Of a DNA stretch of 64,000 nt, positions 29,088 to 53,125 are shown piece after piece; the stretch's first letter is position 1; each line of letters opens with the position of its first letter. Origin of the DNA: Promethearchaeota archaeon (GTDB lineage Archaea; Asgardarchaeota; Lokiarchaeia; Sigyniarchaeales; SOKP01); assembly GCA_048941625.1 (NCBI GenBank), contig JBHLNK010000002.1, positions 5,098-69,097 on the forward strand. The letters are read 5' to 3'. The notes under the pieces were generated by a model. That model was given only the letters and a program-made list of their open reading frames with translations. It searched no databases and had not been told where the DNA came from. A program made the position numbers and the translations under genes.

Positions 29088-29522
29088 ATGATTGAAGAAG
29101 AAGACGATGAGGAGATATTAAAAAAAGGAATTACACTCAAAAGTGTTTTAAAAAACTTATTCTTCATTTTACTTATAATCTTAGGTATTTTACTTATATC
29201 AATTGATTTTGGGCTTGATCCTTTAATGAGTTGGTCAATTGGATTCATGTTAATTTGTTTTGGGGCTACATTAATACAATTTCAAAAACCAACTCCTGAA
29301 CCTATTAGACAAACTTTGTCGATTCTAATCTGTAAATTATGTGGACTTACAAAAGTAAGAAACTATGAAAAAGGAGATTTTGTATTTAAGAAATTAGATA
29401 AATGCGAAAAATGTAATGATTTTATGGAGATCAAGCAAATTTATTCTGTTAAATTAAAAAGTCCCACAGAAAAAAATAAAAAGCCAGAAACCAAGAAACA
29501 AAATTTAAATGGGAAAAAGTAA
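29088..29522 (+). CDS. Two-TM protein with C-terminal Zn-ribbon
   Basis: Two hydrophobic helices, then CKLC...GDFVF...CEKC; divergent from DUF1512. Confidence 0.8.
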   Translation: MIEEEDDEEILKKGITLKSVLKNLFFILLIILGILLISIDFGLDPLMSWSIGFMLICFGATLIQFQKPTPEPIRQTLSILICKLCGLTKVRNYEKGDFVFKKLDKCEKCNDFMEIKQIYSVKLKSPTEKNKKPETKKQNLNGKK

Positions 29523-29564
29523 AATATTTTAATATAATCTTTAAATTCATTTGGTGTTTCTTAG

Positions 29565-30020
29565 ATTCTCAAAAAAGTTGGATTAGGTGGAACTTTCGAT
29601 CACCTTCATGAAGGACATAAGTTTCTTTTAAAAATTGCCTTTTCAATATCTGAGTTTGTAGAGATCGGATTAACATCTCAGGAATTATTAAAAAATAAGC
29701 TATTTTCATCTCAATTAGAAGATTTTGAAACAAGAAAGGAAAACTTAGAAAACTTTATTGAATCTATTGCTGATTTGAACAGAATAAATATTGTTCAAAT
29801 AAAAAATTGGGCTGATATGGATAAGTATGCTCAAGATCCTGATTATGAAGGATTAGTAGTAAGTCAAGAAACATATCATAATGCCGTAAAATTAAATGAA
29901 AATAGAGAAAATAAAGGTTTAAACCCTCTAGTTTTAATCGTTATACCTTTAATTAAAGATAATAACAATAATAAAATAAGTTCTACATCAATAAGAAAAA
30001 AATCAGTTGATTCAAATTAA
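29565..30020 (+). CDS. coaD: Phosphopantetheine adenylyltransferase (archaeal/eukaryotic type); real start lies upstream of the ORF-track call
   Basis: In-frame sequence upstream of 29775 reads ILKKVGLGGTFDHLHEGHK...VEIGLTS; VVSQET and KISSTSIR follow. In-frame TAG at 29562-29564, so the start is uncertain (see findings). Confidence 0.88.
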   Translation: MLKKVGLGGTFDHLHEGHKFLLKIAFSISEFVEIGLTSQELLKNKLFSSQLEDFETRKENLENFIESIADLNRINIVQIKNWADMDKYAQDPDYEGLVVSQETYHNAVKLNENRENKGLNPLVLIVIPLIKDNNNNKISSTSIRKKSVDSN

Positions 30021-51124: not shown

Positions 51125-52102
51125 TTAATTGATATTATTTTTTCGCCATATATACCTTGTTAAGAAGAAATTAAATGAGTTCTTGATAAAAGCTTTCCAA
51201 AATTCCAATGAAAATAAAACATTCATTCTTGAAATAATATTTATGAAGATAAAGATTTTTGACAAAAAAATCTTAGGATTATTTATGATAATAATGACTA
51301 ATCTTTCTCCAATCTCTGATTTAACACGATTTAGTAATATTTTTTGAACTTTTGGAAGGTGACTTAACATTTTATTAATTATGAATATTCTATCTTCAAG
51401 TTGGGATAAGCGAGATAATGGATGATAATAAGATTGGCCATTGCAATAAGGTTTAATCATCCTTATAGTAGTACTGACTGAATTATCCCAATAATTCCAA
51501 AATATTTTTGATGAACATAAAGTATCACCTGCCATCATAGCTTGCGTCATAAGTACCTGTTGCATGTATGTGCACCCTATAAACTCTTTTGCTTGATTAA
51601 TGTTTAATGGTTCCTTTTTTATTACTAAACCTGTTAAAAAATGTATATTAAAACCTAATTCAATTAATGATTCAGCCCCCCCTTTATAAATTCTATCATT
51701 GAACATTATTGGAATTTTATTCTTATGTGATCTTTTATCACCTACCGAACCAACTATAGTTGATAAATTTTTCTGTTTTTTAATTATATTTAGTATGTAT
51801 GGGAATGCCTCAATATCAGGATTCTCATCATCACCGCAAAAAAAAAGAAATTCTCCGTTAGCTCGTTCAACTAATTTAAGAATATTTCCATCAAAACCTA
51901 GATTTTTATCATTTCGAAAATATTTAATCCGATCATCTTTAATACTTTCAACTAATTCCTTTGTATTATCTACTGAAGCATTATCACTTATAACAATTTC
52001 AATTTCCTCGCTTTTAAACTTAATAATCTTATTTAATAAATCATATAGAATAGTGTCTCGATTATAAGTGGGAATGCATATACTCAAAATCGGTTTTTTT
52101 AT
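51125..52102 (-). CDS. GT2-family glycosyltransferase
   Basis: (IKKPIL)SICIPTYNR, SDNASVD, NLG, GDD. Start is either TTG 52087 or ATA 52102. Confidence 0.88.
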   Translation of the reverse strand: MKKPILSICIPTYNRDTILYDLLNKIIKFKSEEIEIVISDNASVDNTKELVESIKDDRIKYFRNDKNLGFDGNILKLVERANGEFLFFCGDDENPDIEAFPYILNIIKKQKNLSTIVGSVGDKRSHKNKIPIMFNDRIYKGGAESLIELGFNIHFLTGLVIKKEPLNINQAKEFIGCTYMQQVLMTQAMMAGDTLCSSKIFWNYWDNSVSTTIRMIKPYCNGQSYYHPLSRLSQLEDRIFIINKMLSHLPKVQKILLNRVKSEIGERLVIIIINNPKIFLSKIFIFINIISRMNVLFSLEFWKAFIKNSFNFFLTRYIWRKNNIN

Positions 52103-52264: not shown

Positions 52265-53125
52265 TTATATCATATCATTTTTAAGTATTGAATTTAATTT
52301 TGAATTATCTCCCCAAAAAGCCATAGGTACATAATCTGGATATGGATAATACCCCAAGTTTAGTTTTATGGATTTGCCTTTCTTTTTAATATAATTTTCA
52401 ACTAATTCTTTTATAGAAATAGGTTTCCCACTACAACAGTTAATTTTTCCAGTTATCTTCTTCTGTAATGAAATTCTCACAATATATTCTGCTACCTTAC
52501 TAATATGTAAATAATCTCTAATTTGTTCTCCACCAGACATATTAAATATTTCTTTATCATTTTCTAAGGCTTTATCTAGTTGGGCGATTAGTGAATTTGG
52601 ATTTTGACCTTGTCCATACATATAAAAAAGTCTTATCCACTTGAAACTAAAATTAAATTTATCATTTAGTAATTCAATAAATCTTCTTAATGTGTCTTTT
52701 GCTATTGAATATGCATTTATTGGATTAGTTTCTATATCTTCTGATAGACACCCACTTTTCATACCATATTCAAAACAAGTCCCAATTATGTTTACATCTT
52801 TTAGCCCATTTTTGATAATGTTCTTAATAAAGTTATAATTGGAAAATAGGTTTCTTTCAAAATGATAAAATTCATTATAATTAGGTAATCCTTCCCAAGA
52901 TAAATGGATAAGAGAATCTGGTTCCTCAAAAAAAGTGAAATAATTCTTTTTAGATTCATTCAAATCACATTGAATATACTTTACTCTATCATACCATTCA
53001 AAATTTCGAATATTTTTAGTTAGATCAATTGAAGTAGCTATTATTTGATATCTATTTAAACTCAACAGTTCTTTCACTACATAATTTCCAATAAAGCCTG
53101 TCGCTCCAGTTACTAAAATTTTAAT
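52265..53125 (-). CDS. NAD-dependent sugar-nucleotide 4-reductase/epimerase (extended SDR)
   Basis: In-frame IKILVTGATGFIG upstream of the ORF-track start; GTCFEYG, YSIAK, RLFYMYG, RDY. Confidence 0.88.
   Translation of the reverse strand: MKILVTGATGFIGNYVVKELLSLNRYQIIATSIDLTKNIRNFEWYDRVKYIQCDLNESKKNYFTFFEEPDSLIHLSWEGLPNYNEFYHFERNLFSNYNFIKNIIKNGLKDVNIIGTCFEYGMKSGCLSEDIETNPINAYSIAKDTLRRFIELLNDKFNFSFKWIRLFYMYGQGQNPNSLIAQLDKALENDKEIFNMSGGEQIRDYLHISKVAEYIVRISLQKKITGKINCCSGKPISIKELVENYIKKKGKSIKLNLGYYPYPDYVPMAFWGDNSKLNSILKNDMI

Follow-up and report, generated by a model that had tools for sequence, protein, structure and literature searches.

Shine-Dalgarno (SD)-led initiation at AUU or AUA has been described for several bacterial genes, including infC (encoding IF3) and pcnB of Escherichia coli and infC, cvfC1, ccpN and citZ of Staphylococcus aureus (PMC4705826, PMC13009471, PMC5499595). 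In S. aureus reporters, a near-cognate start is described as yielding about 10% of the output of AUG (PMC13009471), and bacterial infC uses its AUU for autocontrol (PMC4705826). The latter source also describes the autoregulation of eIF1 in mammals and yeast via a poor start context, as well as Sulfolobus extracts, in which an AUU mRNA is bound without aIF1 and rejected with it (PMC4705826). Ribosome profiling of Haloferax detected near-cognate peaks, which make up about 30% of the putative alternative starts (PMC7261190). Where archaeal start codons are treated in reviews, they are given as AUG, GUG and UUG, and SD sequences are called rare in Lokiarchaea (PMC7531240, PMC12993045); archaeal non-canonical events are summarized elsewhere as demonstrated in elongation and termination only (PMC8211752). 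In the main texts of openly accessible journals, our search returned a single-gene Asgard case, the tubulin gene atubA of Kari, for which a rare ATT start was inferred from alignment and structure (PMC13394414), and no paper that surveys ATT/ATA starts in this group.

Here we analyzed a 64,000-nucleotide stretch of DNA (the window) from the 3.65 Mb, 29% GC genome of a Promethearchaeota archaeon (G000), in which coaD has ATT as its candidate start codon. Like the bacterial infC type, this is a near-cognate codon at normal SD spacing, conserved across species, and the gene of a fidelity factor likewise appears to use a near-cognate codon. Sequence marks of starts of the infC, pcnB and cvfC1 type were also found at coaD: an orthologous swap with AUG/GUG, a 16S-complementary SD at the spacing of AUG genes, and constraint on the codon. 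The differences are that bacteria have a handful of such starts (four described S. aureus sites), whereas an estimated 120 genes, including those of ribosomal proteins and an essential CoA enzyme, are concerned in G000; that the factor is aIF1 and not IF3; and that the SD of coaD is short rather than extended. Kari atubA resembles coaD in its upstream ATT with a plausible ribosome-binding site, and its deposited protein is without the first strand, which is mended by the ATT. However, atubA belongs to another Asgard lineage and is presented as a single rare case, with no survey or conservation test in the account of its start. The likeness to eIF1 is that the mRNA of a SUI1-family fidelity factor carries a weak start; in eukaryotes this is an AUG whose context is poor, combined with scanning, whereas here the start would be near-cognate and SD-led, and the feedback is putative. 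Haloferax shares the apparent ability of archaeal ribosomes to initiate at near-cognate codons, but the sites discussed there are alternative ones that were discounted as potential false positives, and they are not the only, conserved starts of core genes.

The start of coaD in the window and in related genomes

The sequence-only reading of the window had claimed that coaD is without a canonical in-frame start. This is true: no ATG, GTG or TTG lies between the in-frame TAG and the GGTFDHLHEGH motif, and all coordinates given earlier for this region were correct on recheck (Table 1). The first such codon in the coaD frame is TTG 29775, 70 codons in and well beyond the HxGH motif. The absence is not chance.

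Table 1. Coordinates of the features discussed (positions in the window unless a contig or locus is named)
Feature	Position	Strand	Remark
Upstream gene, 144 aa	29088-29522	+	Hydrophobic stretches and two CxxC pairs; 42 nt before ATT
TTG and GTG	29551 and 29554	+	Candidate upstream starts of the other frame
Putative SD core GGTG	29553-29556	+	8 nt before ATT
TAG	29562-29564	+	In frame, immediately 5' of ATT; sits in SD spacer; not conserved
ATT	29565-29567	+	Likely coaD start codon, would be read as Met
coaD	29565-30020	+	Archaeal phosphopantetheine adenylyltransferase (PPAT), 151 aa/codons
A-AAA-AAG heptamer	29571-29577	+	Correct phase; Lys-Lys codons, no conserved frameshift signal
Stem AGGTGG / TCACCT	29585-29590 / 29600-29605	+	Six pairs; by-product of GGTFDHL codons
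GGTFDHLHEGH motif of coaD	29586-29618	+	
aIF1/SUI1 gene	G000:C64:33967-34284; locus L125:3971-4291	-	PF01253 match
Near-cognate cases in other Asgard genomes	L412:4859-5401; L403:10248-10940; L385; L396; L237		

The coaD product is an archaeal PPAT (CoaD), judged by its score against NCBIfam PRK00777 (137.5 bits, cut-off 104), the presence of the HxGH motif and its likeness to 3do8, and its adenylyl transfer activity is predicted. It also matches PF01467. The best solved relative is 3do8 (E 3e-17), residue 2 of which aligns to residue 4 of the query, and the beginning of the 3do8 chain is matched by the coaD residues that precede GG. A single match to the coaD protein was found in G000. The genes pheS and pheT lie downstream, and the 144-aa gene on the 5' side, found in 43/45 loci of genus g1 and 37/37 of genus g22, matched no known family in Pfam and NCBIfam searches.

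A total of 134 genomes of the family were searched with the coaD query, of which 112 gave a match. The 5' ends were read for 108 copies from 107 genomes, four weak paralogue matches and one fragment without its 5' end being omitted. At the codon seven before GGTF, ATT was found in 84 copies, ATA in 5, ATG in 14 and GTG in one; the remaining four have another codon there and an ATG further upstream. Aligning the related 5' ends therefore places ATG or GTG exactly at the ATT codon in 15/108 copies, which strongly supports the option, proposed from the sequence alone, that coaD starts at ATT behind GGTG. Within the window's genus the codon is ATT without exception (45/45), and in a sister genus it is ATT in 35/37 copies; neither genus has ATG or ATC there. 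Zero canonical codons stand ahead of the GGTF motif in 35 of the 89 ATT/ATA copies, and in 12/89 a stop immediately precedes ATT/ATA, so an internal Ile codon is excluded in those copies. Canonical codons occur at -1, -3 or -4 in 31/89 and upstream, often as GTG within the SD, in 23/89, and a minority of copies could thus start elsewhere. Beyond this family, most coaD copies in the order have ATG, GTG or TTG plausibly placed, and two are ambiguous. As a separate observation, the coaD query found nothing in 9/53 genomes of the genus (G005, G006, G013, G014, G016 and others), some of them listed as 90-100% complete; loss, an assembly gap or a search miss may be responsible.

The GGTG upstream of ATT is complementary to the 16S tail GATCACCTCCT, which was found on G000:C64, and GTG 29554 belongs to this SD. 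The match in the window is only 4 nt long. Its spacing of 8 nt falls within the 5-8 nt at which the SD spacing of ATG genes in G000 peaks. SD matches of at least 4 nt at normal spacing were found in 82/89 ATT/ATA copies of coaD vs 6/15 ATG/GTG copies, and position -11 is G in 79/81 copies.

Constraint on the codon was examined on a coaD gene tree of 81 complete copies from two genera, with a median protein identity of 63%. The start codon needs two parsimony changes, both between ATT and ATA, and none to ATG or ATC was seen among the 81 copies; the number of changes ranges from 10 to 20 for seven internal Ile columns and from 11 to 27 for fourfold columns, a contrast measured within one tree of a single short gene whose genomes are kin rather than independent. 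The codon is conserved beyond the needs of an isoleucine residue, a pattern of substitution that points to a codon being held and not merely tolerated. Translation of coaD very probably starts at the ATT. This reading rests on the layout of the site, the swap of ATT/ATA with ATG/GTG, the near-invariant codon and the genome-wide excess described below, and we infer initiation from conservation.

For coaD alone this is a tidy annotation point, and the ATT start is already present in NCBI-type annotation. Among the 120 public homologues listed for the coaD protein, 25 begin at the ATT position (MLKKVGL-type, the window's own included), 78 are shortened to -1 or -3 and 17 are extended upstream; proteins that were never called are missing from such a list. 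New here are the family-wide count, the constraint test, the direct rejection of a frameshift and the CTG case of Thorarchaeota.

Improbable readings of the coaD start: frameshifting, assembly error and gene decay

A-AAA-AAG followed by a hairpin is the -1 frameshift signal of the dnaX/IS type. The sequence-only reading had offered, as its second option, that translation starts at the TTG or GTG of the other frame and slips by -1 at this heptamer with the aid of the 3' stem. Both the in-phase heptamer and a six-pair stem exist in the window, where the unshifted frame stops at TAG 29584. Across the 89 ATT/ATA copies, the slippery heptamer is present at the site in 19, and a start within 20 nt upstream whose frame, the one proposed, is open to the site in 21. 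The two occur together in only 8/89 copies, the window among them; one or both are missing in the other 81, and a TAA precedes the site in that frame in several. The folding energy of the 63-nt stem region is -8.3 kcal/mol, no better than that of its shuffles (-9.7 +/- 2.4, z = +0.61; equalled by 145/200). The Gly-Gly-Thr-Phe-Asp-His-Leu codons dictate five of the six pairs and leave one free to vary; this one is present in 33/89 copies, giving stems of five pairs in 56 copies and of six in 33. Moreover, a frameshift leaves unexplained the invariant ATT and the 14 copies with ATG at that codon. The heptamer and the stem are chance or by-products, of Lys-Lys codons in a 29% GC genome for the former. 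The coaD of the window shares the heptamer with the dnaX/IS type but is not a member of it, as none of the three features (heptamer, upstream frame, structure) shows conservation or significance, and a programmed frameshift is highly improbable.

A third option was that one A had been lost from the A6 run during assembly, the true start being TTG or GTG; seven As would indeed open the frame from 29551. This did not hold up, as relatives keep the same phase, which is unchanged in 44 further copies of the genus, and assembled contigs (not raw reads) of 4/4 runs from two studies show no insertion or deletion. Record 1 of X1, a contig that may come from the source sample, is identical over 29300-29826, and record 13 of X2 is identical over 29375-29604, reaching 28 letters beyond the A6 run, just short of the 31-letter rule. 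We regard an assembly error as the least probable of the explanations considered, close to negligible.

The missing canonical start, together with the 22/134 family genomes that gave no match to the coaD query, would also fit a pseudogene, or a coaD accessed from the upstream gene by splicing, fusion or readthrough. However, the frame is intact and conserved family-wide, it is the sole match in G000, and the genomes without a match include incomplete ones and may be misses of a first look. The gap between the 144-aa gene and coaD varies from 13 to 55 nt, occurs in all three phases and has stops inside, which excludes fusion or readthrough from the upstream gene. Gene decay or dependence on the upstream gene is thus very unlikely compared with an ATT start. 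A sigma-70 promoter scan gave chance numbers of matches, with a consensus unsuited to archaea.

Probable near-cognate starts in G000 and in other Asgard lineages

The codons behind a strong SD and upstream of the first canonical start were surveyed in 3088 long ORFs of G000. ATT (64/2047) and ATA (43/1537) are the only codons clearly enriched there (p 1e-10 and 3e-6, respectively). Their excess peaks 6-7 nt past the SD core, in frame only; no excess of ATT/ATA inside genes and none of other AT-rich codons upstream was found in this survey. At SD sites without a canonical start, near-cognate codons at 6-8 nt fill 141/316 in-frame vs 34/604 out-of-frame slots, alongside 255 canonical starts, these counts being of sites and not of genes. 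Near-cognate codons make up about a third of the strong-SD starts in G000. We estimate that about 120 genes, near 4% of the long ORFs, may have such starts, which is a lower bound because the 4-nt SD of coaD itself falls under the threshold. At such a proportion, gene callers restricted to three start codons shorten or miss core genes, and part of the SD rarity reported for Lokiarchaea may stem from wrong starts.

A profile scan covered 35 of 116 candidate ORFs, taken from regions picked for looking conserved. A total of 19 match an NCBIfam family and 16 match none at that cut-off. In 15 of the 19, the aligned part of the family profile already starts ahead of the first canonical codon, the other four being uninformative. 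Candidate near-cognate starts include CTG for uL2, ATA for uS10, eL21 and L7Ae and ATC for LysRS, and were also found for V-ATPase D and a SUI1 protein. In relatives, the homologous codon of uS10 is ATA in 12/27 copies and ATG/GTG/TTG in 13/27, and that of eL21 drifts among ATA, ATC, ATT, CTG and TTG within the genus (24/30 loci read). At both genes, ATA/ATC/ATT/CTG thus interchange with ATG/GTG/TTG at one codon. The uS10 gene of G043 (L441) reads TCG in place of the TTG of its nearest relative and offers no alternative in-frame start; the sequence may be wrong here, or TCG may be an additional start codon.

Several other frames with candidate near-cognate starts were observed in G000. On the minus strand of the window, a 286-aa frame that opens with a nucleotide-binding-like motif has an SD-led ATT at 53125, with its first canonical codon 16 codons further on, and a 325-aa frame has an SD-led ATA at 52102, 5 codons ahead of its first canonical codon. 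A second gene of the cytidylyltransferase family (G000:C79:25056-25448, minus strand) has no canonical codon before HxGH and a likely ATA start.

Outside the family, in-frame and out-of-frame near-cognate slots were compared in samples of 200-400 kb. The habit is significant in G147 (6/14 vs 1/28) and in the Thorarchaeota-titled G354 (14/77 vs 9/148), as well as in 20 mixed regions around aIF1 (14/46 vs 2/90), a count biased by the selection around that gene. It is not significant in the 200-400 kb samples of L. ossiferum (7/32 vs 7/64), G065 (5/17 vs 3/33), G176 (3/12 vs 1/18) and G187 (4/20 vs 4/37). In Thorarchaeota-titled genomes, 8/19 coaD copies are without a canonical codon before the motif and have CTG where others have TTG; coaD in these genomes (L313-L334) often has this CTG, 13 codons before the motif and 3 nt past an in-frame stop. 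Taken together, near-cognate starts appear to be a habit that is likely lineage-wide, with coaD as one case and the aIF1 gene likely included.

Individual genes of other Asgard genomes were also noted. RNA polymerase A' of L. ossiferum (L346:12736-14235, minus strand) needs an SD-led ATC start, its family match beginning at residue 8 and its first canonical codon (at 28) lying 26 codons on, and the Kae1-Bud32 gene of this organism (L344) is ambiguous, with ATT right behind GTG. In L. ossiferum, both coaD and aIF1 carry ATG. Near-cognate starts are needed or fit at eS17 (CTG), RNase HII (ATT), a PRK13768 GTPase (ATT, two genera) and TFB (ATT).

The aIF1 gene and the possible purpose of a weak start

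The SUI1-family gene of G000, which we take to be that of aIF1, has zero ATG, GTG or TTG in its entire frame. In 67 of the 74 loci read in the family, the first CxxC is preceded by no canonical codon, ATT being the usual codon; 6 have GTG only, which in five is apparently part of the SD, and the remaining one falls outside the motif count but is likewise without a canonical codon. The ATT start and a fixed upstream context are kept across the family, and neither ATG nor TTG was found at this start in the 74 copies. ATT is also present at aIF1 in genera whose coaD has ATG, which shows that the codon of coaD is not dictated by that of aIF1. In other families of the order, 11/16 aIF1 genes have ATG or TTG. 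Among 20 loci from other Asgard lineages, ATG is present in 10, while 7 offer no canonical codon and carry an SD-led ATA or CTG instead; the other 3 are ambiguous.

A conserved weak start on the gene of a fidelity factor, one mark of infC- and eIF1-type autoregulation, was thus found at the aIF1 gene. In Sulfolobus extracts aIF1 discriminates against AUU, and the AUU of bacterial infC serves its autocontrol (PMC4705826); by analogy, feedback of aIF1 through its own ATT may be the natural reading, if loosely drawn. The fixed ATT of aIF1 gives a testable claim on the origin of eIF1 autoregulation.

The following course of events is proposed for coaD. From its position 8 nt ahead, the conserved SD would bring AUU into the P site, where the usual initiator Met-tRNA would pair with two of the three bases through its CAU anticodon, and the predicted N-terminus is MLKKVGLGGTF. 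Initiation at AUU would be weaker than at AUG, and selection may keep the weak codon so that PPAT stays low, or tunable and tied to aIF1. The tolerance of such codons might be set by aIF1, whose own gene also has ATT, and an infC-like feedback might leave enough AUU initiation for essential genes. If the ATT is the start, a regulatory purpose of this kind is reasonably probable.

A rival account agrees on the start site and differs on purpose only: AUU would be read almost like AUG, so that the ATT is nearly neutral and persists without pressure and without tuning of PPAT. About a third of the strong-SD starts are near-cognate, those of ribosomal proteins needed in abundance among them, the codon of eL21 varies among five within one genus, and 15 coaD copies of the family manage with ATG/GTG, all of which this account would explain. 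However, it leads one to expect reversion to ATG and drift towards ATA or ATC, whereas the 81 copies show two changes and none to ATG or ATC, and 8/19 coaD copies of Thorarchaeota-titled genomes, which lack a canonical start, also carry a weak codon, CTG. A neutral start is therefore unlikely, though far less so than the frameshift or the assembly error, and the retention of ATT at coaD for regulation is preferred.

A wider scheme, which we put forward tentatively and hold to be somewhat less probable than not, is a stringency circuit in Asgard archaea. An AUU-rejecting aIF1 would itself be made from AUU, AUA or CUG; in this family of Lokiarchaeia the same dial would set at least 100 genes, including those of PPAT and ribosomal proteins, and coaD would have been tied to it independently in Lokiarchaeia (ATT) and Thorarchaeia (CTG). 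If this holds, the circuit would connect infC control in bacteria with the autoregulation of eIF1 in eukaryotes by way of archaea.

Other causes of near-cognate initiation were considered and not favoured. An altered aIF1 was set aside because the basic loop (RRKWGR) is retained, as judged by eye. A start rule for the whole CoA pathway is not indicated, since coaBC and the DUF359 kinase in G000 have ATG/TTG available. For a special initiator tRNA, ARAGORN gives 18 tRNAs in G000, an incomplete set, with one Met(CAT); blastn of G000 finds no second copy of it, and a relaxed ARAGORN run gave noise only. The Met(CAT) tRNA has A1-U72 and three G-C pairs in the anticodon stem, which are initiator features. 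ARAGORN also gave a selenocysteine tRNA at G000:C21:53795-53887, and many tRNAs of this genome have introns.
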